Shown: positions 5,716-30,525 of the stretch, piece after piece
Layout: each line of letters begins with the position of its first letter
Numbering within the stretch: the stretch's first letter is position 1
Source of the DNA: Ureaplasma parvum serovar 3 str. ATCC 27815
Lineage (GTDB): Bacteria; Bacillota_I; Bacilli_A; Mycoplasmatales; Mycoplasmoidaceae
Assembly: GCF_000019345.1 (NCBI RefSeq)
Contig: NC_010503.1
Span: 420,001-452,000, forward strand
Length of the DNA: 32,000 bases
Reading direction: 5' to 3'
Translations under genes and position numbers: made by a program
The notes under the pieces: model-generated
The model's database searches: none
Told to the model about the DNA's origin: nothing
The model's input: the letters and a program-made list of their open reading frames with translations, nothing else

Positions 5716-5914
5716 TGTTTTTTACTATGTAAAAAGACACTAATATTGATTTTTATTTACAATAAAAAAATAATTAACAAAACCCCAGTATTTTTTTCAA
5801 TAGGCTCATTTTAATGATAGATTAAACCTATTGTTATAAATATTTATAGCTTGTTAAAGCAATTACTAACAAAATAAAAAACCACCATTGTAAACTAGGA
5901 CAAAAAATTTAGAC

Positions 5915-6532
5915 TCAAATAGATTTATTGTTCATATAAACATCCCACATTTGTTGGGGTGTTTTTAAATCAAATTTTTTGATAAATCTTTCATTATTAT
6001 ACAAATTAATAAATTTGTCTATTTCTATTTGCAATTCATTAAATGTTAAACTTTTTGCTTTTTGAAAAAAATTTGAAAATATTTCAGTTTTTAGAATAGA
6101 AAAGAAATATTCTACTTCTCTATTATCCAAAGAATTTCCAACTCTTGACATAGAAATAGTGCCATTAATTGAATCTATGTAATCAAGGAATTCCTTAGAG
6201 GAATATTGATATCCGTGATCTGAATGTACAATGAATTTTTTAGGAAATTTAGTTAGTTTAAAATGTTTTAAAACAAGATTAGTATCATTATATTTTGATA
6301 AATTCCAGCTCACAATTTTCTTTGTTTTATGATGCAATAAAACCGATAAATATACATGATTTTCTATAACATCAGTGGGTGAAGGAATATATGTCACATC
6401 GGTAGCATATATATCATTCATTTGGCCATCATAATCTCTATTGGCTAAGTTTTTGAATGTTGCATTAACATTCTTTATTTCTCTTTTTCTTTTGCTTCTT
6501 CTTATTTCGCATAGCAAACCCAATTTATTCAT
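5915..6532 (-). CDS. IS3-family transposase OrfB fragment (rve/DDE integrase core, N-terminally truncated ORF)
   Basis: ORF-track protein contains YATDVTYIPSP (D), HSDHGYQYSS (D) and GNSLDNREVEYFFSILKTE (E), the IS3-type DDE triad context. Confidence 0.8.
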   Translation of the reverse strand: MNKLGLLCEIRRSKRKREIKNVNATFKNLANRDYDGQMNDIYATDVTYIPSPTDVIENHVYLSVLLHHKTKKIVSWNLSKYNDTNLVLKHFKLTKFPKKFIVHSDHGYQYSSKEFLDYIDSINGTISMSRVGNSLDNREVEYFFSILKTEIFSNFFQKAKSLTFNELQIEIDKFINLYNNERFIKKFDLKTPQQMWDVYMNNKSI

Positions 6533-7153
6533 AATTCTGCCCAGAGTCCTTGGATTTATATCGATTTGGTACTTTTTCTTTTAAAAAAAGTGAAAGTCTT
6601 TCCCTTCCAAATCTTCCTTTGCATTCAATAAAAGCCTCTTTTATTTGTTTTTCATATTGAATTGCCTTGTTTTTGGCTGGCAATTTAAATTTTTTAATTC
6701 CTAAAATAGTGATAATTTTGCTTTATTGATATTGAAAAATTATGCTTCTTTTTAATTTTTTTCAACAACTTCTTCTAAATTTTTGCTATTGTTGCGTTTT
6801 AAAATTTCTTCATAAAAAATATCAGTAATGAGATATTCAAGTTGTTCTCTTGACATTTCTTTTAAAGTTTTTTCACGAAGTTTTTTTCTTGTTCAATATC
6901 TCTTTTTCTCGTGCGACTTGAGCCCTTACCTTTTTTTGGTAGCCTTGCCTGTTTGCGAATTTATATTCATACCTAAATTATAGAGTTTATATTTGGTTTT
7001 AATTAGTTTTAAACTATATTTATTTAGTTGCCTTCCATTACTAATTTCACAATATTTATATGATAAAAATTCTTTAGAAATATCATAATTTAAATATTGT
7101 TCATATCAAAAAAATATTGATAATCATTCATCTTCTCTTAATTGTCTTCCCAT
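5915..7153 (-). pseudogene. IS3-family transposase orfAB, apparently disrupted (in-frame TAA stops and frame changes even under code 4)
   Basis: Minus-strand ATG at 7153 gives MGRQLREDEWLSIFFWYEQYL...SQTGKATKKR, then TAA directly after an A7G slippery-type run (about 6929-6937). Sensible sequence continues as ...KLREKTLKEMSREQLEYLITDIF...EKN stop, then ...SKIITILGIKKFKLPAKNKAIQYEKQIKEAFIECKGRFGRERLSLFLKEK in another frame with an internal TAA. A further shift is needed to reach YQIDINPRTLGRIMNKLGLL of the 5915-6532 ORF. Confidence 0.5.
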
Positions 7154-7230: not shown

Positions 7231-7298
7231 AAAAATGGGCTTTTTTTATTTACTAAAATTTAAATTCTGAAAATTATCAGTTTTAAAATAATAAAAAA
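7231..7298 (+). repeat. R1: about 68-bp direct-repeat copy between the IS end and the 3' end of the repeat cassette
   Basis: aaaaatgggctttttttatttactaaaatttaaattctgaaaattatcagttttaaaataataaaaaa matches 9624-9691 with about 4 mismatches. Confidence 0.8.
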
Positions 7299-7319
7299 TA
7301 GCTCAATTTTTTGAGCTAT
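7292..7319 (-). terminator. rho-independent terminator of the expressed lipoprotein gene
   Basis: Minus-strand hairpin atagctcaa/ttgagctat (7298-7306 pairs with 7311-7319) followed by a T-run, about 35 nt past the stop at 7352. Confidence 0.6.
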
Positions 7320-7351
7320 TTAATTTAAATTTTATTTTTTAACTAAAGTAA

Positions 7352-8545
7352 TTATTTTCCAGTAGTTTCTTTACCTGCTGGTTGTTCTTTACCTGCTGGT
7401 TGTTCTTTACCTGCTGGTTGTTCTTTACCTGCTGGTTGTTCTTTACCTGCTGGTTGTTCTTTACCTGCTGGTTGTTCTTTACCTGCTGGTTGTTCTTTAC
7501 CTGCTGGTTGTTCTTTACCTGCTGGTTGTTCTTTACCTGCTGGTTGTTCTTTACCTGCTGGTTGTTCTTTACCTGCTGGTTGTTCTTTACCTGCTGGTTG
7601 TTCTTTACCTGCTGGTTGTTCTTTACCTGCTGGTTGTTCTTTACCTGCTGGTTGTTCTTTACCTGCTGGTTGTTCTTTACCTGCTGGTTGTTCTTTACCT
7701 GCTGGTTGTTCTTTACCTGCTGGTTGTTCTTTACCTGCTGGTTGTTCTTTACCTGCTGGTTGTTCTTTACCTGCTGGTTGTTCTTTACCTGCTGGTTGTT
7801 CTTTACCTGCTGGTTGTTCTTTACCTGCTGGTTGTTCTTTACCTGCTGGTTGTTCTTTACCTGCTGGTTGTTCTTTACCTGCTGGTTGTTCTTTACCTGC
7901 TGGTTGTTCTTTACCTGCTGGTTGTTCTTTACCTGCTGGTTGTTCTTTACCTGCTGGTTGTTCTTTACCTGCTGGTTGTTCTTTACCTGCTGGTTGTTCT
8001 TTACCTGCTGGTTGTTCTTTACCTGCTGGTTGTTCTTTACCTGCTGGTTGTTCTTTACCTGCTGGTTGTTCTTTACCTGCTGGTTGTTCTTTACCTGGTT
8101 GTGTAGTTTCAAAGTTCACTTTTTCTGTTTGATAATTCAAATTATCAGATATTAACAAACCTGAAGTCTTGATTAATCCACTTTTACTAATAATAGTTAA
8201 TTGTTCATTAGGTTTTGGTTCACGAGGTAATTTAACGTAAATTTTTTCACCAACTAAATGACCTTTTTCAAGTGTACTTTCTGTTTTGTTTTCAGCTGAT
8301 GTAAGTGCAGCATTAAATTCAATGTTACTTAATGATTTTTTATCATCATTACTTAGATCTTTAAAGTTTTCAATTTCGTAAACCGCATAAAAACTTTTAC
8401 CGTCTGTTGATTTAGCAAATTGGTTACTTAACTTAGATTTAACAGTTGAATTAGAACATGAAGCTGCTATAGCAACTATTCCAGCTCCAACTAAGGTAAC
8501 ACCTAATGTCATAGCTCAGAATTTTTTATTTTTTAATAATTTCAT
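7352..8545 (-). CDS. surface lipoprotein, currently assembled expression copy: signal peptide, constant N-terminal module, NLNYQTEKVNFE junction, then (KEQPAG)n repeat tail
   Basis: ATG at 8545 with AGGAG 8 nt upstream. MKLLKNKKFWAMTLGVTLVGAGIVAIAASC has a lipobox (IAAS-C). It joins ORF 7352..8512 in frame through one TGA. The C-terminal part is about 40 KEQPAG units ending GKETTGK, then TAA. Confidence 0.85.
7367..8097 (-). repeat. perfect 18-bp tandem repeat array, about 40.6 copies (unit ggtaaagaacaaccagca on the coding strand = GKEQPA)
   Basis: Sequence lines repeat exactly with the 180-nt period expected for an 18-bp unit on 60-nt lines. No variant unit seen by eye. Span 731 bp. Confidence 0.95.
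8108..8142 (-). repeat. site A: 35-bp in-frame junction element (encodes NLNYQTEKVNFE), inverted relative to site B
   Basis: The reverse complement of 8108-8142 is atttgaattatcaaacagaaaaagtgaactttgaa, identical to 8854-8888. It lies exactly between the constant N-terminal module and the repeat cassette. Confidence 0.85.
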
Positions 8546-8853
8546 TTATGATTCTCCTAATATAAAAAATATGTCATTTTATTGTTTTTATTTAATATAT
8601 GTAAAAAATATGAACACTAAGATTTGGTAATCTTACATAATTTCTACAGTAATTAATTTTTAATTTTAACGAAAACATATAAAGATTGCAAATACTTTTT
8701 ATTTAGCACTTGCACTTTTAATTATATAATTTTTACTATTTTTTTTATTTTTTTATTTTTCTGCATTATCGATAACATTATTAGATATTTTTTATTATAA
8801 ATTATGATTAAAAATTTAATTATATATCTATATTATTTTTAATAAGTTTTATT

Positions 8854-8888
8854 ATTTGAATTATCAAACAGAAAAAGTGAACTTTGAA
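8854..8888 (+). repeat. site B: 35-bp junction element heading the silent plus-strand cassette
   Basis: atttgaattatcaaacagaaaaagtgaactttgaa on the plus strand, in the same reading frame (LNYQTEKVNFE) as the following 249-codon ORF. Confidence 0.85.
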
Positions 8889-9605
8889 GCAGCTTCAGCT
8901 CCAAGCCAACAACCATCTCCGACTCCAGCTCCAAAAACTGAAGAACCAAAAGAAAATGGTGGTAGCGAACAGCAAGCTGATCAACCAGAAAATTCTAAAA
9001 AAGATGATGTTGTAGCTAGTGGTGTAAAAATTAGTGAAGTCAAAAATAATACTGCTACTATTGAAGTTACATTTAGTAAATTTGAATTAGCAGATGCTAA
9101 TAAAAAAGATTTTGTTTTAGAAGTTATTAAGAAAGCTGATACAAATCCAATTCAAGCAAGTGATTTAAAATATGATGAAGCATCTAAAACATTAAGCGGT
9201 AAACTAAGTGGTTTAAATTCAAATGTTGACTATGAAATTTCAAAACTAACTTTAAATGGTAAAGAAGTCAAATTTAATGAAGAAGAGTTGTTAAAATCAT
9301 ATGTTAAAAATGCAAAATTATTTATGACATTCAACAAAGAAAATAAGAAAATTAATGTTAAATTACAAAATTTTGATATTTTAAATTCTTTAGAAGAAAA
9401 TCAACCTATATTAACATTTGATATTGAAATTAAAAAAGATAGTAGTTTACAAGTAGTTCATAAATCATTAACAAAGAATCAATTATCAAATCTTAATGGT
9501 TTAGAAATTGATTTAAAAGATAAAATGAATGGAAATAATGCAAATTATGATGTTAAATTAACCAATGCTAAATTGTTAAATGTTAACATAGAAACACAAA
9601 AATAA
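8856..9605 (+). CDS. promoterless, signal-peptide-less lipoprotein 3' cassette 2 (Pro/Gln-rich linker plus about 200-aa domain)
   Basis: The ORF opens only at a TTG that is the Leu codon of the junction element. It reads LNYQTEKVNFEAASAPSQQPSPTPAPKTEEPKENGG.... No Met, SD or lipobox. The upstream region is the divergent 5' region of the 7352-8545 gene. Confidence 0.6.
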   Translation: MNYQTEKVNFEAASAPSQQPSPTPAPKTEEPKENGGSEQQADQPENSKKDDVVASGVKISEVKNNTATIEVTFSKFELADANKKDFVLEVIKKADTNPIQASDLKYDEASKTLSGKLSGLNSNVDYEISKLTLNGKEVKFNEEELLKSYVKNAKLFMTFNKENKKINVKLQNFDILNSLEENQPILTFDIEIKKDSSLQVVHKSLTKNQLSNLNGLEIDLKDKMNGNNANYDVKLTNAKLLNVNIETQK

Positions 9606-9618
9606 TATAAATAAAAAT

Positions 9619-9640
9619 AGCTCAAAAATGGGCTTTTTTT
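9619..9640 (+). terminator. weak rho-independent terminator after cassette 2
   Basis: agctca aaaa tgggct hairpin (6 bp with one G-U pair) followed by T7, 14 nt after the TAA at 9603-9605. Confidence 0.45.
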
Positions 9641-9691
9641 ATTTATTAAAATTCAAATTCTAAAAATTATCAGTTTTAAAGTAATAAAAAA
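9624..9691 (+). repeat. R2: about 68-bp direct-repeat copy between convergent cassettes 2 and 3
   Basis: aaaaatgggctttttttatttattaaaattcaaattctaaaaattatcagttttaaagtaataaaaaa; same orientation as R1. Confidence 0.8.
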
Positions 9692-9746
9692 ACCAATCAA
9701 TAGATCTTGTTTTTAAGATTTTTGAGTGGTATTTATTAATAAATTT

Positions 9747-9963
9747 TTATTTTTTAGCTTCTTCTAATTCTTCTTTAGCTTTATCAACTGCTTCTTGTTT
9801 TGTTGTTTGATTAGTTTTAGCTGTTTCTAATAATTGATTTGCGTTTTTTGATTCTTTAGTTGCTTCATCTAATTTTGTTTTAGCAGCATCAGCAACTTTT
9901 TGTTTGCTTTCAACATCAGTTTTAGCAGTTGTTAATTCTTTTTCTGTTTGATAATTCAAATTA
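9747..9963 (-). CDS. promoterless lipoprotein 3' cassette 3 (short Lys/Glu/Ala-rich, coiled-coil-like tail)
   Basis: Minus-strand frame reads NLNYQTEK ELTTAKTDVESKQKVADAAKTKLDEATKESKNANQLLETAKTNQTTKQEAVDKAKEELEEAKK then stop. The track start (MIFYIF, TTG at 9980) has no SD or signal peptide. Confidence 0.55.
9938..9963 (-). repeat. site C: 26-bp copy of the junction element (taatttgaattatcaaacagaaaaag)
   Basis: The reverse complement of 9938-9963 equals the minus-strand sequence of 8119-8144 (site A). A 24-bp core is shared by A, B and C. Same orientation as A, inverted relative to B. Confidence 0.8.
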
Positions 9964-10128
9964 AAAATATAAAATATCAAGTAATTTATATTTTAAAACA
10001 TTTTTGAAACAAAATTTTGTTATATAAATACTTATATATTATAAAATAATAAAAATAAGATTATTCAAGTAATAAATGCAACTTAATATTATTGGTCTGC
10101 ATTTATTTTTATAAATATAGGTGTTAAA

Positions 10129-13100
10129 ATGGAAACAAAGAATGCATTATTTAAAAAGATTGTAAAAATTTCTGATCAATTATTAAATAAAATTAGTATC
10201 AAAAAATTAACTAAAGATAAAAAAAATAATTTATTTGTTTATTTTGACGAATTTGTTGATGTAACAATTATTGATGAATTACATCAATTATCAAAAACAA
10301 CATTAATGCATGATTTACAAATTTGATATATTAATAATTTAAAAGAAGTTGATCATAAAAAAATATTAACTTTTTTTAAAAAAATTAGTGAACAAAATGC
10401 TAATTTAATCTTTTTAGAACAAATAAATGATTTAAATACAAAAATAGAATATAACTCTAATTTAAATTCATTAATTTTAAAAATTAATGATAAATTAATT
10501 TATGATCATTTTATAGCAAATAAATTAGAAATTTTAAACATCTTAAAAGTTTGATCACTACCTTATAGTAATTTTGAAATTCATTTTGAAAATCTTAGTT
10601 CATTATTAAATGAAAAGCATGAACAAGCAGTAAATGAAATTATTAGTCATCATATTCAACAACAAAAACATTTAGAACAACAAATTAGTCAGCAGCAAAA
10701 TTTTTATAATAATCAAAAGGCAAATTTTAATTATTATAAAAATCCTTCAAATAAAACAATTACAAAATTAATTGATATTAATCCTTTAATGAATAATGCA
10801 AAAATTCGAGCTTATGTTTTTTTAAAAAAGATTGATATATTAAAAAGTGGAGCAATAGCTTATAAACTAAATGTTATTGATGATAGTGAAACCTTAACAA
10901 TTATGACTTATTTACCAAGCGGTGAACATCCTTTAAAAAAGTTTTTAGATGAACTGAAAATTGATCAATTAATCGAGGCTGAAATTGATATTGTTTTAGA
11001 TAATATGAGTAAGAGTGGTCAAGTTCCTATTGGTAAAATTAAAAAAATTTGTTGCGTTGAAGATAAACATGTAAAAAAACAAATCACACCTCGTTTAGAA
11101 CTAAATTTTCATACAAAAATGTCATCACTTGATGCAATTATTTCGACACAAGAATTAATTGATTTTGCGGTTAAGAATCAATTAAAAACAATTGGCATCA
11201 CTGATCGAAATGTTGTACAAGCATATCCTGAAATCGCTAAATTTTCTAAAAAACAAGATTTAAAAATTATTTATGGTTTAGAAACAGAAGAATTAGAAGA
11301 TCAAATCCCATTAGTTTTAAATGTTCGGGATCAAAATTTAGATAATGCTACATATGTTATTTTTGATATTGAAACAACAGGATTATTTCCTAATTTTGAT
11401 GAAATTATTGAATTTGGGGCCGTGATTATGCAAAATAATAAGCAAATTGGGGAAAAAATTCAATTTTTTATAAAACCTATTCAACAAATTAATGAGAATG
11501 TTACTAATCTAACTAATATTAGTCAAGAAATGGTCAATAATGCAATTGATGAAAAAACAGCATTATTAAAAATTAAAGAAATTTTTGATGACCATATTTT
11601 AGTTGCACATAATGGAATTAATTTTGATATTAATTTTATTAATCAGAGACTGTTAAAATGAGGATTAGAACCTCTTAAAAATCCTAGTATTGATACATTA
11701 ATGATATCACGAGCAATAAATCCATTTAAAAGTCATCGATTAGGAGCGATTTGTAAAAAATATGAAGTTGATTATAATGATGAAAGTGCACACCGTGCAG
11801 ACTATGATGCCATAGTTTTAGCTGATGTTTTTAAAGTTATGAAAAATAACTTATTTAATGATTTTGGAATTACTAATTTAAGTGAAATTAATACTAAATT
11901 ACAAACAACAATGTTAAAAAATCGTAGTTTTGGTAATTGAATTAATCTTTATATTAAAAATCAAGCAAATGTTAAAGATATGTATGAATTAGTGTCTATA
12001 TCTCATACTGATATGTATTATACAAGACCAACAATTACGACAAGCTTTTTAGCAAATAAAAAAGATAAATTAATTATTTCTAACTCGATTCACGAATCAG
12101 ATTTAATCAATGCTTTATATTCAAAAAACGATGAAGAAATTAAAAGGTTAATTCAACGTTATGATTTTATAACATTACCATCATTAGGTTCACAAAAACA
12201 CTTAGTATATGCTAAAAAAATTACAATTGAAAATGTACAAAAAGCTTTTAAAAAATTGATCTATTTAGCTTTAGAATTAAACAAGATTATTATTTATTCA
12301 AGCTCGCCTTATTATTTCTTTAAAGATGATAAAAAATTTTATGATGTTTATGTTAATACGAAAGGTCTCGAAGGTAAAGCACACCGATTTGCTAATGAAG
12401 TTTATGTTCCTGATTTAGAATATATTGATCAAAAAAATGCCATTGATGAATTAGCTTATTTAGAAGATGAAAAGTTAATTAACTTGATTATTAATGAGAA
12501 TCCTGTGCATATTAATAGTTGATTTGATGATAGCATACAACCTTTAAAAGAAGGATTGTATGCTCCAAAAATGGAAGGTGTTGATCAAAAAACAATCGAT
12601 TATGTTTATCATACTGCTAAAAAAATATATGGAGAGAATTTACCAACAATTGTTGAACAGCGCATTAAAAAAGAATTAAATTCAATTATTAAACATGGTT
12701 TTAGTGTTGTTTATTGAATTTCACATTTATTAGTAGAAAAATCAATGCAAGATGGTTATGGTGTTGGTAGTCGTGGTTCGGTTGGCTCATCACTTGTCGC
12801 AACGTTTTTAAATATTACTGACGTTAATCCGCTTACACCACATTATTTATGTCCTAATTGTAAAAAATGTGAATTTATAACAAACGCTGATGATGGATTT
12901 GATTTAGCTCCTAAAAGTTGTGAGCAGTGTCAAACTCCAATGTTAACTGATGGACATAATATTCCTTTTGAAACTTTTTTAGGTTTTGATGGGGATAAAG
13001 TACCAGATATTGATCTTAATTTTTCTGGAGTTTATCAAGCAGTTGCACATAATTTTATTAAAAGTATTTTTGGAGAAACACATTCTTATCGTGCTGGTAC

Positions 13101-14457
13101 AATTGGTACTATGGCCCAAACAAGCGCTGAAAATACGGTTAAGAAGTATTTTGAAAACCGTTTTAATGAAAATAAAATTATTCGTGATTCAACGGTTAGT
13201 TTATATGTACAAAAGTGCATTGATTCTAAACGCACAACTGGTCAACATCCTGGGGGTATTATTATTGTTCCTAAAGAATATAGTATTTGGGATTTTTCAC
13301 CTTATAATTTTCCAGCTAATGATATTAATGAAACTTGAAAAACAACTCATTTTGCGTTTGAATATCTACATGATAGTTTATTAAAATTTGATATTTTAGG
13401 ACATGATAATCCAACAATTTTAAAACTTTTAAAAGATTATACGGGGATTGATGAACGTGATGTACCAATGTATGATCCATTAGTTATGAAATCATTTAGC
13501 GATATTAGTGCGCTAAATATTAAACCGTCTGATGTTTTAAATGAAACAACAGGAGCAATTTCTATTCCTGAATTTGGGACACGCTTTGTACGTGGTATGC
13601 TAGTGGATACTAAACCAAAATCATTTGCTGACTTAATTCGTATTTCAGGATTATCACATGGAGAAAGTGTTTGATTAGGAAATGCACAGTCATTAATTAA
13701 ATCTGGTAAATTGCTAAAGGATGTTATTGCTTGTCGTGATGATATTATGACATATTTAATTCGTCAAAATGTTGAACCAAAAACTGCCTTTTTAATTATG
13801 GAAGATGTTAGAAAAGGTAAAAAGATCAAACCAGAACACCAAATCATTTTAAAAGAATTAAAGGTTCCTGAATGATACATTGAATCAGCTAATAAAATTA
13901 AATATATGTTTCCCAAAGCACATGCCACAGCTTATGTTATGCATGCATGAAAATTTGCTTGATATAAAATTTATTATCCACTAGAATACTATGCAGCATT
14001 TTTTAGTGTTCGTGCTGATAATTTTGATTTATTTGTAATTAATCAAGGTAAAGAATTTATTGAAAAAACTTATAATGATATCGAACAACGTTCTAAATCA
14101 CGCGATCCACAAAAAAAAGTTAGTTCACGTGAACTTGCTTTACAACCAATTTATGAAATTGTGATTGAATTATTAGCTCGAGGTTTTAAAATTTCAAATA
14201 TTAGTATTGAACAATCACAGGCGACTAGTTATGTAATTGATAAAGAAAACAATGCTATTATTCCACCATTTATTGCGATTCAAGGATTGGGTGAAACAGT
14301 AGCTAATTCAATCATTGAAGCTCGTAATCAAAAAGTTTTTTCAACAATTGAGGATTTAAAAAACCGTACAAAAATTTCGCGTACAGATTTAAAAAATTTA
14401 CGAGTATTAGGCGTTTTAGATCATTTAAGTGAAACTGAACAACTAACATTATTTTAA
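10129..14457 (+). CDS. polC: DNA polymerase III PolC-type alpha subunit (1442 aa)
   Basis: Seven track fragments (10129, 10789, 11701, 11980, 12745, 13468, 14161) share one frame and are joined by TGA. Exonuclease motifs [19 protein letters not shown] and HRADYDA. Zn-finger CPNCKKCEF...CEQC. Polymerase motif [10 protein letters not shown]-terminal HhH region. Confidence 0.95.
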
Positions 14458-25790: not shown

Positions 25791-26666
25791 ATGGCGTTAA
25801 GTAAACACAGTATTGGTTTGATTAAAAATTTAAAGAATAAAGGATTGACTATTAAAAATAAAGAAAAATTCATTAGTTTCTTGTTTAATTATGGAGTCAT
25901 AAGAGTTATAGATGGTTATTCATTTTTTTTAAAAAAAGATAATCAATATGTAAAAGGCTTAAAAAGTAAGGATTTAATTAATTTTGTTTTATTAGATCGT
26001 AAAATTGCTAATTTAATGGGTGATTGTATTATGCTATTTGAACAACAATTAAATGCTATTGTTGTTCAAAATTTTTTAAAGATCAATAATTTAAATTCAA
26101 AATATGTTATAGATATGCGAACAGATCCTTTTATAAAATTTGAATCACCAAAACATTATGAAATATTATCAGAAAATATTTACACATATGCTAATTCTTC
26201 TAATTTGTTAAGTCAATTTAATACTAACGCACAAGAAATTCCTTTAATTAATTTAGCATTATCATGAACATTAAATACCACTATTGGCTTTTATCGTGCA
26301 GTTGATAATAATGTTCAAATTAGTGTTTTAGAGTATTTTCAATTAAATCATATTACACCATTAGAATTTATTGATATTTTACATATCATAAAACATTTTC
26401 GTAATAGTATTTCTCATAACGATATGGTAATTACTAATAGTTTCAATGATAACGTAGGTGCATTTGCTAAATCATTAAAATTAAAAAGTATTAAAAAAGT
26501 AGTGGGATTTTTAGATGTTGCGGCTTTTTTAACGGCGTTTACAAACGATAAATTTCATGTTTTAAATGGTAATTTACACATCAAAATTTTACAAGCAATT
26601 AAAAAAGCAAAATTCAAAGGCGTTGTTTTAGAACATATTAATAATTTATTAGGAGTTGAAGATTAA
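25791..26666 (+). CDS. Abi_2 family (AbiD/AbiF-like) abortive-infection protein (291 aa)
   Basis: Fragments 25791 and 26424 are in the same frame, joined by one TGA. Abi_2-like landmarks: LKNKGLTI...FNYGVIRVIDGYSFF, LLDRKIANLM...FEQQLNAIV, LSWTLNTTIGFY and the C-terminal FRNSISHND (RN-x-x-x-H). TATAAT at 25755-25760 upstream. Confidence 0.7.
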
Positions 26667-26670
26667 AATT

Positions 26671-29600
26671 ATGCAAGATCAAGGAGTAAATAACAAGGCA
26701 ATTAAGCAAAAAGTCTTAAATTTACTATCAACTGATACGCGTGATAGTTGTATAAGAACACGCTTAACAAAATACCATTTAGATATTAGTCACACTTTTA
26801 ATAAATATGAACTTCAAGATTTTATTGAAGGTAAAATTAACATTCTTAAAATTAGAAATTTTATTAACATCAATACGTTTGAAAATGATGTTAAAAATAT
26901 AAATTCAATGGATGAATTGATTGATTATTTACAGGATTTCAATTTAAAACTAAAAGATCTTTTATCGACACGTAAAATTAATGAATGGAGCCAAGACTTT
27001 GTATTTTATAAAAATGAACGAATTGCTGATATGATTAAAGCGATTGAAAGTCAACCAAAAAAATTTGAATATTTAAGTCGTGAAGCACGCAATATTTATG
27101 CGCAAACAGGTGTTTGACCTTTATATATAGCTAAAAATTTTTTGATTGGTACAACACCTAAAGCTTCAAATATTAACGCGCCCTTAATTTTTGTTGATGT
27201 TGAGATTAAAAAATATAATGGTGAAATTTTTTTAAAACGAAAAAATACTAATTTTATTGTTAACGAAAAAATACTATCTTTTTTAAAAAATGATTATAAA
27301 AATAATATCGTTTCTTTAAATGAAATTAAAAACTTTAGTTATTTAGAAATTCAAACTCTAATTAAAAAAATAATACTAAAAGATCATTTAGAATCGATTA
27401 TTAATAATAATGAATTTCTAAACTTAAAACAAAATGAAATTAATGAGCAATTTAATAACTTTTTTTTATATGATGCATATGTTTTAGGAATTTTTGAGCC
27501 CCATGGAGGAGCGATTAAAAATGACTTAGAAGTGATTATTAGTAATAATATTGATCCTTTTGACGAAGAAATAAATAATGTTAATCAACAAATTTATTAT
27601 AAAAACTATCATTTTTTAGCAGAAGAAAATAAGCTTCCTTTAATCCAAATTAATCGTCCTTTAAATATTTTTCAAAAGTATGCTATTCATTCAGGATTAG
27701 TTAAAAATACTTTAATATATGGACCGCCTGGAACGGGAAAATCAGAGGTGATTGCAAGTATTATTGCAAACGTAATTAATGATTTAAAATCGATTTTAAT
27801 TATTTCGGAGAAAAAAGCTGCTTTAGATGTATTACATGAAAGATTAGCTAAAATTAATTTTTTCACACTTTTTATTTATGATACAAATAATGATGATCAA
27901 TTTTATAATAACATTTTTAATTTAATTGAAAAAATAGGAGGATTGCGTTTTATTGAGAATCAAGATTTAAACCAATTCAATGATTTTAAATATAAAAATA
28001 ATATTATTTCAAACATTTATTATAAAAAGATTCATGAATTAAAAAAAGAAATTATTAATATTACATCTTTAATTAAAAATTTACATAATGAAAAAGATAA
28101 TAATGATAATAATTTTGCTAATTATTTGTATTGATTATCACGCTTTAATGAAGTAGAAATTAGATTTATTAACGATCCATTATTGATCAATGAAATTAAT
28201 AATTTAATTGAGAATTATTCTTATAATTTTGATGAAATTATTACACACGTTAAAGCTAGTTATGATTTTTTTAAAAAATATAATTATGAATTTTCTAAAA
28301 ATAATTTTTTAAAATTTAAAGAAGAAAGCGAACAATTAAATAAATTACAAATTGATTTTAATTTAATTACAAAATCTTTATATCAATCACAAACTTTTCT
28401 ACCACGTATTAAGTTGTTAGAAAGCTTTTTAGTTAAAAATAATATGACTTTAACAAGTCTTATATATGATGATGTTAACTTGTTAAGTAATACATATGTT
28501 GAAGCTAATGAGTTTTATACAAACTTTAATCATCTTTTAAAAGATGATTTTAAAAAATTTATTGAAGATAATATAAAAAGTCATTCATTGTTTTTTAGTC
28601 ATTTAAATACTTTAAAAAATAATGAATGAACTTATGCTTTTGAGCAATATTTATTAATAAATAATCCATTTGCTAAAAAAGGTTTATTTAAAAAAATTAA
28701 AGGTGATGAAAAAAAATTATGAAAACAACTTGATCTACTTAAAATATATATTAATAATCCTTTTTTATCAAAATTTAGCTTTGATTTTTTAGAAGATTTA
28801 ATCAAACAACCAATAGAGATTTTCAATGTTGAAAATCTTGTTTATTTAAATAACAAACATTTATTAAATAAAGCATACGTTAAAGATTTATATGAGAATG
28901 CTTTTGATAAGAATTTATCATATGAACTAATTTATGGCCTTAAAGATTTAAAATTAAATAGTGAGCAATATGATATTATTAAAAATTTAATTAAATATCA
29001 AAACGAAGTTTTAGTTAATTATCAATTCATTAAAAATACTGATTTTTTTAATTTGTGTAAAAAATTAAGAGATGCAAATATTCAATTTTCTAAAAATGCT
29101 GATGAAATTATTTACAATAACTATTTAGATTATTTGCAAATTAAATTAGTTACTGCTCCTAAACAAATCCAAACAAAAATTAAAGAAATTGCGCAAATTT
29201 GTCGTTTAGCAAAAAAACCTAATATTGTGAAATTTATTTTAAAATATTATGAAATTTTACGTTTTCTTTTCCCTATTTGAATTAGTAAACCAGAACTTGT
29301 TAGTGAGATGTTACCATTAATAAGTAAGAGTTTTGATTATGGAATTTTTGATGAGGCTTCTCAGATGTTTTTAGAACGTTCTTATCCTTCAATCTATCGT
29401 TGTAATATTAATATTGTTGCAGGCGATGATAAACAATTATGCCCTACTAATTTTTTTATTAATCGTCAAGAAAATGAAAACGATGAGTTTGAATTAGCAG
29501 ATGTAGATGTTGCAGAAAGTTTATTAGATCGTGCTAAAACTGCTCTATGGTCAGAATATTTATTAAAAAACCACTATCGTTCTAATCGAGAAGATTTAAT

Positions 29601-30525
29601 TAGTTTTAGTAACGATAATATTTATAATGGCGATTTACATTTTGCATCTAAAAATGGGTTATTTGATCCAGGAATGGAAATTATAGATGTTGAAGGTGTA
29701 TTTGAAAATGAAAATGTTATTGAAGCACAAAAAATTATGGAGGTTTTAAAAGAACGAGCAGCCAATTATCAAAAAATTATTGTTATAACTTTTAATATCA
29801 AACAAAGTGAATTAATTGAAAATTTAATACTACAAACTTTTAGTTTTAATGATGTTGTTTATCAACGTTTTGAGAATGATGAAATTATTGTTACTAATTT
29901 AGAAAACGTTCAAGGTAATGAAGCTGATTTAGTAATTTTATCGGTTACTTATGCCAAAAATAAAGAAGGAATTTTACGCAATAATTATGGCCCATTAATG
30001 AAAAAAGGTGGTGCTAATCGGTTAAATGTAGCGATTACAAGAGCAGCAGATAAAATGATTGTTGTTAAATCAATTAAAGCTGTGGATATGATGGTTAATA
30101 TTAATAATGATAATATTAGGACTTTTAAAAATTTTATTGGTTATTGTGATGAAATTGTTCATTTGACTAATCAAAATAAATTTAATGATTGTAGTCATTT
30201 TGATGAAGAATTTTTAACAAGTTTAGAAAAAACCATATTGAAAATTTTAAAAGATTATAAAAAAACAAATCAACAAATTTTATATAAACTAAAAATTGGT
30301 AATTTTAAAATCACTTTTGCTTTATATAATGAAGAAAAACAAAAAATCGATTTACTTATTTTTATAGAAGAGTTTAATGAATGAAAATCATATAATCTTT
30401 TAGAAATTTATGATCAATTTAACTTCTTAATGGATCGTGGTTATAAAACAATCGTTATTAATGATTATGAAATTTGTTTAAACTATAATCAAGTTAAAAA
30501 TAATATTATTAAATTAATTGATTAA
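26671..30525 (+). CDS. DUF4011-type SF1 (Upf1/DNA2-like, AAA_11/AAA_12) helicase with C-terminal Vsr/DUF559-like endonuclease-fold domain (1284 aa; alternative TTG start at 26656)
   Basis: Five track fragments (26656, 27142, 28183, 29053, 29308) and the untracked stretch 28627-29052 form one frame broken only by TGA. DUF4011-like GVWPLYIAKNFLIG...NAPLIFVDVEI. Walker A GPPGTGKS (27721-27744). DEASQ (29350-29364). GDDKQLCPT. HYRS. VQGNEADLVILS. NRLNVAITRA. The tail KITFALYNEEKQKIDLLIFIEEFNEW...DQFNFLMDRGYKTIVIND resembles the DUF559 pattern. Confidence 0.8.

Follow-up and report, generated by a model that had tools for sequence, protein, structure and literature searches.

A two-segment inversion switch with three IRmba sites and a candidate third C-terminal cassette at the mba locus of Ureaplasma parvum serovar 3

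We analysed a 32,000-nucleotide stretch of genomic DNA from Ureaplasma parvum serovar 3 str. ATCC 27815 (contig NC_010503.1, positions 420,001 to 452,000; hereafter the window, numbered from its first letter). Between the remnant of an insertion sequence (IS) and polC it carries a lipoprotein gene and two silent 3' cassettes that almost certainly make up the multiple banded antigen (mba) phase-variation locus of this serovar, a two-segment inversion switch with three copies of the recombination site IRmba (Table 1). With TGA read as Trp (translation table 4), the open reading frame (ORF) at 7352-8545 on the minus strand encodes 397 amino acids (aa), comprising in order a lipobox signal peptide (...AIAASC), a 133-aa N-terminal module, the stretch NLNYQTEKVNFE and a long run of KEQPAG repeats. 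The N-terminal module matches the NCBIfam model NF045872 (urea_MBA equivalog, "multiple banded antigen") with 323.4 bits against a cutoff of 305, over positions 1-146 of 147; apart from a generic mollicute lipoprotein signal-peptide model, its other matches were to Ureaplasma MBA models only. A Shine-Dalgarno sequence, AGGAGA, lies at 8553-8558, 7 nt 5' of the ATG, and the best -35/-10-like match to consensus, TTTACA-18-TAAAAT at 8605-8576, marks a putative promoter. The repeat array, as called by TRF, has a period of 18 and 40.6 copies with 100% matches. An exact database look-up of the MBA product translated by table 11 gave no record. A homology search with the N-terminal module alone returned 7 proteins only; full-length serovar 3 MBA was not among them, an absence that means little in a search of this kind.

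The element that organizes the locus is a 24-bp core, ATTTGAATTATCAAACAGAAAAAG, which occurs exactly three times in the window, once at the junction of the N-terminal module and the repeats (site A) and once at the head of each of two further cassettes (sites B and C). No additional copy was found in the window even when 3 mismatches were allowed, and 100 dinucleotide-preserving shuffles gave 0 matches, against a chance expectation of none, so that a chance repeat is ruled out as the explanation of the core. Sites A and B form 38-nt inverted arms (8108-8145 and 8851-8888, 97%), sites B and C form inverted arms of 30 nt (93%), and sites A and C have exactly 26 nt in common (8119-8144 = 9938-9963). 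All three copies are read in frame as LNYQTEK. Behind site B an open frame of 249 codons ends at 9605, and behind site C the frame that continues from the core stays open for 63 codons, whereas the remaining two frames contain many stops; at the local base composition, the chance of such a 63-codon frame is estimated at about 1%. Neither site B nor site C has an ATG, a Shine-Dalgarno sequence or a signal peptide of its own, and no remnant of a 5' end was found upstream of either. A terminator-like hairpin follows each of the three cassettes. Cassette 2 has no Pfam family at E ≤ 0.01, although published sources call its product DUF1410, and the tail encoded by cassette 3 gave no family match above cutoff.

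These observations bear out, at the level of sites and frames, a preliminary description of the window made from its letters alone. That description had placed the three core copies where the repeat search, the mismatch scan and the shuffles find them, and had read all three in one frame, as translation does. It had assigned a start codon, a Shine-Dalgarno sequence, a lipobox signal peptide and an N-terminal module to copy A alone, in agreement with the ORF translation, and had described copies B and C as lacking all of these and leading to separate tails, as the frame analysis confirms. Its statement that the window holds no tyrosine recombinase gene also stands, since an rve transposase remnant was the only integrase-like find of the domain search.

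In 20 related contigs we located each part of the locus and classed every core copy by its flanks, which can be, on the left, the N-terminal module (N), the promoter-distal end (P) or the polC side (R) and, on the right, the repeat cassette (T), cassette 2 or cassette 3. State I (N-T, P-2, R-3) is the arrangement of the window, with MBA expressed, and recurs in contigs L007, L008, L009, L011 and L014. In state II (N-T, P-3, R-2), found in L010 (CP086127), L012 and L013, the segment between sites B and C is inverted; MBA is still expressed and cassette 3 occupies the acceptor position. State III (P-T, N-2, R-3), in which the segment between sites A and B is inverted and the N-terminal module is expressed as a fusion to the cassette 2 product UU376, was found in five contigs (L021, GCA_037405295.1; L024; L025; L027; L028). 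State IV (N-3), the fusion of the N-terminal module to cassette 3, occurs in L023 (Logan, SRR28295874). Two further contigs (L015, L016) show only the R-2 junction and are in state II or IV, and one (L030) shows only the N-2 junction, which fits state III. In every case among the contigs classified, the exchange of flanks is clean across the 24-bp core. All four states of a three-site, two-segment switch are thus present in public assemblies of isolates and metagenomes.

The rearranged proteins themselves can be found in databases. The predicted 384-aa fusion of the N-terminal module to cassette 2 is present verbatim as CAR85679.1, 'ureaplasma phase variable protein 376', and a one-substitution variant of it is encoded in an isolate genome. 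The predicted fusion to cassette 3 was found by exact look-up as protein P0055 on contig L023, whose 916 bp contain, in order, the promoter and Shine-Dalgarno region, the N-terminal module (400/400 nt), the core, cassette 3 (191/191 nt), the spacer and the convergent 3' end of cassette 2. The preliminary description had predicted that A×B inversion would fuse the N-terminal module in frame to cassette 2, as the P-T and N-2 junctions of the five state III contigs and CAR85679.1 demonstrate; that B×C inversion would bring cassette 3 to the acceptor position, as seen in the P-3 and R-2 junctions of L010, L012 and L013; and that cassette 3 could be reached in two steps, for which L023 provides the N-3 junction. 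It had also named a comparison of the locus between strains as a check, and this comparison revealed the alternative arrangements with their breakpoints in the core.

We considered whether the state IV contig could be an assembly chimera. Logan assembly uses k=31. A false N-3 join in L023 seems unlikely because the N-T and R-3 junctions have only 26 bp of repeat in common, less than the k-mer length of de Bruijn assemblers. Two metagenome contigs, L026 (1-2000, ERZ27231055) and L029 (1-1960, ERZ27230850), show P-3, N-2 and R-3 together. This combination is impossible in a single three-site molecule because it needs two cassette 3 ends, and we therefore set aside a new arrangement; most likely each contig is a mosaic, assembled from a sample in which cells of state II and state III were mixed. 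If so, the locus switches within a sample.

A scan of a genome contig collection with a 20-nt core gave six single chance matches in unrelated taxa and none in Ureaplasma, the source species being apparently absent or masked in that collection; a megablast of the locus against plasmids gave no match, and a metagenome scan with a 37-nt pattern of N-terminal module plus core gave nothing. When metagenomes were scanned with a 22-nt core, two short contigs of other serovars turned up, both arranged as in the window. As a separate observation, the called MBA ORF differs in length between strains (397, 289 or 229 aa, with no call in L010) in a comparison of L008 8626-9252, L009 8836-9252 and L010 11853-12679 with window 7367-8097. 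The repeat arrays vary in copy number between strains, and in some the frame is broken by imperfect units. These length differences could be true size or phase variation, or long-read indel errors.

Table 1. Features of the mba locus and its borders in the 32-kb window.
Feature	Position	Strand	Description
IS remnant	5909-7153	-	rve-type DDE transposase, several broken ORFs; borders the locus on the leuS side; not the inversion recombinase
Terminator-like hairpin	7296-7321	-	11-bp stem AAATAGCTCAA...TTGAGCTATTT, then U-run; just 3' of the MBA stop codon; z = -2.6
Cassette 1 (mba C-terminal region)	7352-8118	-	VNFETTQPG, 40.6 × 18-nt KEQPAG repeat, ETTGK and stop; expressed in the window configuration
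Site A	8119-8142	-	IRmba core within the expressed ORF, read (N)LNYQTEK; identity to site B spans 8108-8145
MBA conserved N-terminal module	8143-8545	-	ATG at 8543-8545, internal TGA=Trp codon, signal peptide ending AIAASC; 133 aa before the core
5' untranslated region and putative promoter region, on the invertible segment	8546-8853	-	consensus match; in states III and IV it travels along with the N-terminal module
Site B	8854-8877	+	IRmba core heading cassette 2; orientation opposite to that of sites A and C
Cassette 2 (UU376, 'Ureaplasma phase-variable membrane protein')	8878-9605	+	VNFE, Pro/Gln-rich linker, ~200-aa domain; silent in the window
Terminator-like hairpin	9619-9634	+	AGCUCA...UGGGCU, then U-run; after the cassette 2 stop; z = -6.5
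Terminator-like hairpin	9682-9738	-	precedes a U7 run; lies beyond the cassette 3 stop; z = -3.2
Cassette 3	9747-9937	-	63-codon Lys/Glu/Ala/Thr-rich tail in frame with site C, including ELTTAKTDVESKQK... and ELTTAKTDVESKQKVADAAK...; silent in the window
Site C	9938-9961	-	third IRmba core; orientation as site A
polC (DNA polymerase III alpha)	10129-14457	+	directly right of site C

The locus can be identified as mba because cassette 2 has exact matches, the N-terminal module matches NF045872, the 40.6-copy repeat and the IRmba sequence agree with those published, and polC is the neighbour. The cassette 2 protein is found residue for residue in U. parvum serovar 3 genomes, including AP014584 (SV3F4) and AP018561 (OMC-P162). 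The window core equals the published IRmba, 5'-ATTTGAATTATCAAACAGAAAAAG-3', letter for letter (PMC3599477, Zimmerman et al. 2013), and site A exactly matches the 25-nt consensus ACTTT(T/C)TCT(G/C)TTTGATAATT(C/A)AAAT, which flanks cassettes in all 14 serovars (PMC3511179). The array of 40.6 × 18 nt is the repeat mba18bp.2 of serovar 3 (Table 5 of PMC3511179, Paralanov et al. 2012), and polC is the conserved right-hand neighbour of mba loci (PMC3511179). Three inverted repeats have been located in the mba locus (PMC3047005). The window therefore contains the features of an mba locus, namely the MBA domain with its signal peptide, the 18-nt repeat, an IRmba at each cassette and the polC neighbour, and assemblies of the same locus show the inversion that fuses the mba 5' region to UU376. 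UU375 is MBA, and UU376 is the 'Ureaplasma phase-variable membrane protein' (upvmp) of the same locus.

It follows that the likeness to the locus studied by Zimmerman et al. (2009, 2011, 2013) and Paralanov et al. (2012) is one of identity, in that IRmba, the MBA N-terminal domain, the 18-nt × 40.6 repeat, UU376, polC and the inversion between the mba 5' region and UU376 are all shared; the locus is the type example of the Ureaplasma mba phase-variable locus. Nothing substantive differs from that account; the third IRmba, called intergenic in the only passage found to give its place, here heads a 63-codon frame that is fused to the MBA N-terminus in one assembly. The inversion mechanism was already known, and our interpretation of the locus is supported by it. 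MBA and UU376 alternate in expression through DNA inversion at short repeats, with the mba 5' region, which codes for the membrane anchor, fused to either ORF, and the Ureaplasma authors class the mechanism with that of the vsa locus of Mycoplasma pulmonis and contrast it with the vsp and vpma promoter flips (PMC3047005). The preliminary description had drawn this analogy independently and was right in every step of the mechanism; what it missed was the identity of the locus as the well-studied mba locus (UU375/UU376) and the experimental identification of XerC (UU222) as the recombinase (PMC3599477). Raw sequence alone had nevertheless sufficed for the reconstruction of a real shufflon. The only increment over the published account is a small one: the sequence behind the third site may serve as a third C-terminal cassette.

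We propose the following model for the switch. The only Shine-Dalgarno sequence, lipoprotein signal peptide and conserved MBA N-terminal domain are on segment S1 (8143-8853), together with what is probably the only promoter. Segment S2 (8878-9937) holds UU376 and a short tail rich in Lys, Glu and Ala, two 3' cassettes that lack promoters and converge on each other; the cassette of KEQPAG repeats is outside both segments, left of site A. The tyrosine recombinase XerC (UU222), whose gene is elsewhere in the genome, would invert S1 through recombination between sites A and B, or S2 through recombination between sites B and C. Because the site lies within the reading frame (LNYQTEK), each inversion creates an in-frame fusion. 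In state I the N-terminal module would be joined to the repeats to give MBA, with UU376 facing the promoter-distal end; in state II MBA would still be made and cassette 3 would stand in the acceptor position; and states III and IV would yield the fusions to UU376 and cassette 3, respectively. Slipped-strand changes in the number of 18-nt repeats would add size variation, and, as the outcome, the major lipoprotein antigen would switch the part that it exposes at the surface. Alternate expression of MBA and UU376, and its dependence on XerC, have been shown in the literature. The switch presumably benefits the organism in immune evasion.

The arrangements could in principle have another origin. 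Cassettes 2 and 3 might be decayed paralogues of full-length lipoprotein genes, in which case the shared 24-38 bp would be ordinary paralogous conservation and no rearrangement would occur, an idea in line with the presence of MBA N-terminal paralogues and UU376-like (DUF1410) genes elsewhere in Ureaplasma genomes and with the similarity of cassette 2 to UU171 (PMC3047005). This alternative, named beforehand as one that would overturn the shufflon reading, is rejected by the alternative configurations in the assemblies: reciprocal inversions of the same locus have their breakpoints exactly in the core, the fused ORFs are in databases, no 5'-end remnant lies upstream of B or C, and inversion has been demonstrated experimentally (PMC3599477). 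We regard it as practically dismissed. A second alternative accepts the inversions but ascribes them to general, RecA-type homologous recombination in place of a dedicated site-specific recombinase; the inverted arms do share 24-38 bp of identity, and in serovar 3 the locus has no linked recombinase gene. The genome encodes three tyrosine recombinases, of which XerC (UU222) binds IRmba in electrophoretic mobility shift assays (PMC3599477). When the mba locus was integrated in Mycoplasma pneumoniae, MBA alone was expressed for eight passages, and only after introduction of xerC were clones obtained that expressed UU376 from an inverted locus (PMC3599477). This xerC dependence, together with the specific binding of XerC to IRmba, the conservation of the site consensus across all 14 serovars (PMC3511179) and the inertness of a longer repeat at the same locus, a 68-nt direct repeat of 94% that gave no sign of recombining in any assembly examined, makes general homologous recombination a very improbable explanation. 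Site-specific inversion at IRmba therefore remains our interpretation of the locus.

Whether cassette 3 represents a genuine third C-terminus is a finer question. The fused gene would encode a 205-aa lipoprotein isoform, the MBA N-terminus with a Lys/Glu/Ala-rich tail, and the locus would then offer three antigens and not two, a possibility that we rate at somewhat below an even chance; the protein itself may be expressed. No description of the 205-aa isoform was found in the literature searched. A related sequence bears on this point. Contig L022 (QPHJ01000057.1, labelled U. urealyticum) has the same architecture in the state II arrangement, with orthologues of cassette 2 and cassette 3 at 88% and 86% nucleotide identity. 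Its cassette 3 differs from that of the window at 26/186 nt but keeps the frame and the stop position, and the ratio of nonsynonymous to synonymous substitution rates (dN/dS) is 0.46, compared with 0.71 and 1.21 when the frame is shifted. On the architecture of L022, the three-cassette design is common to the two human Ureaplasma species.

Alternatively, only the two-way switch between MBA and UU376 might be functional, with B×C inversion serving to park UU376 and the fusion to cassette 3 being a non-functional off state. In support of this, the third IRmba has been placed 'in the intergenic region 3' of UU376', with two coding sequences described, in the only passage found to give its place (PMC3599477); a single contig has the N-3 junction; and the tail is short, of low complexity and matches no family above cutoff. 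Set against it are the 63 codons open in phase with the core beside frames full of stops, the terminator-like hairpin that cassette 3 has of its own, the retention of frame and stop in the U. urealyticum-labelled orthologue with its dN/dS of 0.46, the common occurrence of the B×C-inverted state that presents cassette 3, and the existence of the fused gene in SRR28295874. We consider an off state unlikely, and less so a third antigen. Several points weigh against the model as a whole and its third product in particular. State IV is known from one 916-bp short-read contig of one sequencing run, and no protein-level evidence for the isoform with cassette 3 was found. The promoter is a consensus match in a very AT-rich region, where 22 promoter-like sites occur against 14.9 expected, and the recombinase gene lies outside the window. 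The M. pneumoniae experiment did not reconstitute continuous switching, as xerC failed to integrate and the subclones were locked in phase (PMC3599477).

Among known systems, the vsa locus of M. pulmonis with its recombinase HvsR follows the same logic. There, as here, one expression site, consisting of a promoter and a 5' coding region, is joined to silent 3' cassettes by inversion at sites within the ORF, and a tyrosine recombinase carries out the inversion; the likeness concerns mechanism and not homology. In M. pulmonis, hvsR lies within the vsa locus. In contrast, no recombinase gene is linked to the mba locus in the 32-kb window, which has only the rve transposase remnant; the proteins also differ, in that no Vsa family match was found here and the N-terminal module is the Ureaplasma MBA equivalog, and the mba locus has only three cassettes. 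The mba locus thus works like vsa but is not a member of the vsa family. Within the same genome, the UU172 element (UU172/UU171/UU144) is a paralogous system in which a paralogue of the MBA N-terminus is alternately fused to neighbouring cassettes, and its inverted repeats, which XerC also binds (PMC3599477), share TTATCAAACAG... with IRmba. It differs in being another locus, outside the window, with the repeat sequence ...AATTTAAATTATCAAACAGTAACTTTTGAAC... and no tandem-repeat cassette. The vpma genes of Mycoplasma agalactiae and vsp genes of Mycoplasma bovis likewise switch surface lipoproteins by tyrosine-recombinase (Xer1) inversions, but those are complete genes with their own signal peptides behind a single promoter and with sites in the 5' untranslated region, whereas the mba cassettes lack 5' ends and the site is in frame inside the ORF. 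The shufflon of plasmid R64 (Rci, pilV) swaps in-frame C-terminal segments onto a constant N-terminus by inversions at short repeats. In R64 the N-terminal part is fixed and only the cassettes invert, whereas in mba the N-terminal module and promoter form an invertible segment; the sites and recombinases are unrelated, and the resemblance is one of principle only.

Several observations concern sequences in and around the locus. The 68-nt direct repeat lies at 7231-7298 and 9624-9691; the stretch 3' of the KEQPAG cassette is similar, terminator region included, to the spacer that separates cassette 2 from cassette 3, which suggests that the locus grew by duplication of a cassette-plus-spacer unit. 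Between the IS remnant and the mba locus, at the point equivalent to window ~7153, some serovar 3 strains carry an insertion (L007 4207-8298, CP021991; L008 4323-8412, AP018561) in which the IS remnant recurs as a second copy, together with a DNA cytosine methylase (PF00145) and an ORF of ~233 aa; it has no counterpart in the window. The insertion has the appearance of a composite transposon and probably corresponds to the type II restriction-modification system described for OMC-P162 (PMC6191088). A 368-aa protein (P0010) on a 1468-bp ENA contig has a UU172-type N-terminus and a UU171-like linker followed by a stretch 100% identical to the last 200 aa of UU376, and is either an inter-locus hybrid of the UU172 element with mba or the product of chimeric metagenome assembly. 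In contigs L019 and L020 (1-490), from a different U. parvum lineage, the N-terminal module is fused to a UU376-like cassette via a variant core (ATTTGAATTATAAAACAGAAAAGG), and the product stops early, at 157 aa, through a CAA→TAA change. The window encodes no tyrosine recombinase; the only ORFs without an obvious housekeeping role have rve-type IS transposase remnant, Abi_2, Competence or helicase domains, and the remainder are alaS, ruvX, leuS, polC, uvrC and similar genes. An Abi_2 (PF07751) protein at 25791-26666 is directly followed by a 1284-aa DUF4011/AAA_11/AAA_12 helicase-like protein at 26671-30525, and the two may be an abortive-infection or defence gene pair in this genome of ~0.75 Mb.

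MBA is the immunodominant surface antigen of Ureaplasma, an agent of chorioamnionitis and of lung disease in neonates, and the target for its serotyping and diagnosis. As published, the inversion switch at its locus explains both MBA-negative escape variants and the unreliability of mba for typing. At least one sample has a short third cassette fused to the MBA N-terminus, an arrangement that is relevant, as an increment, to the design of MBA-based serology or vaccines.

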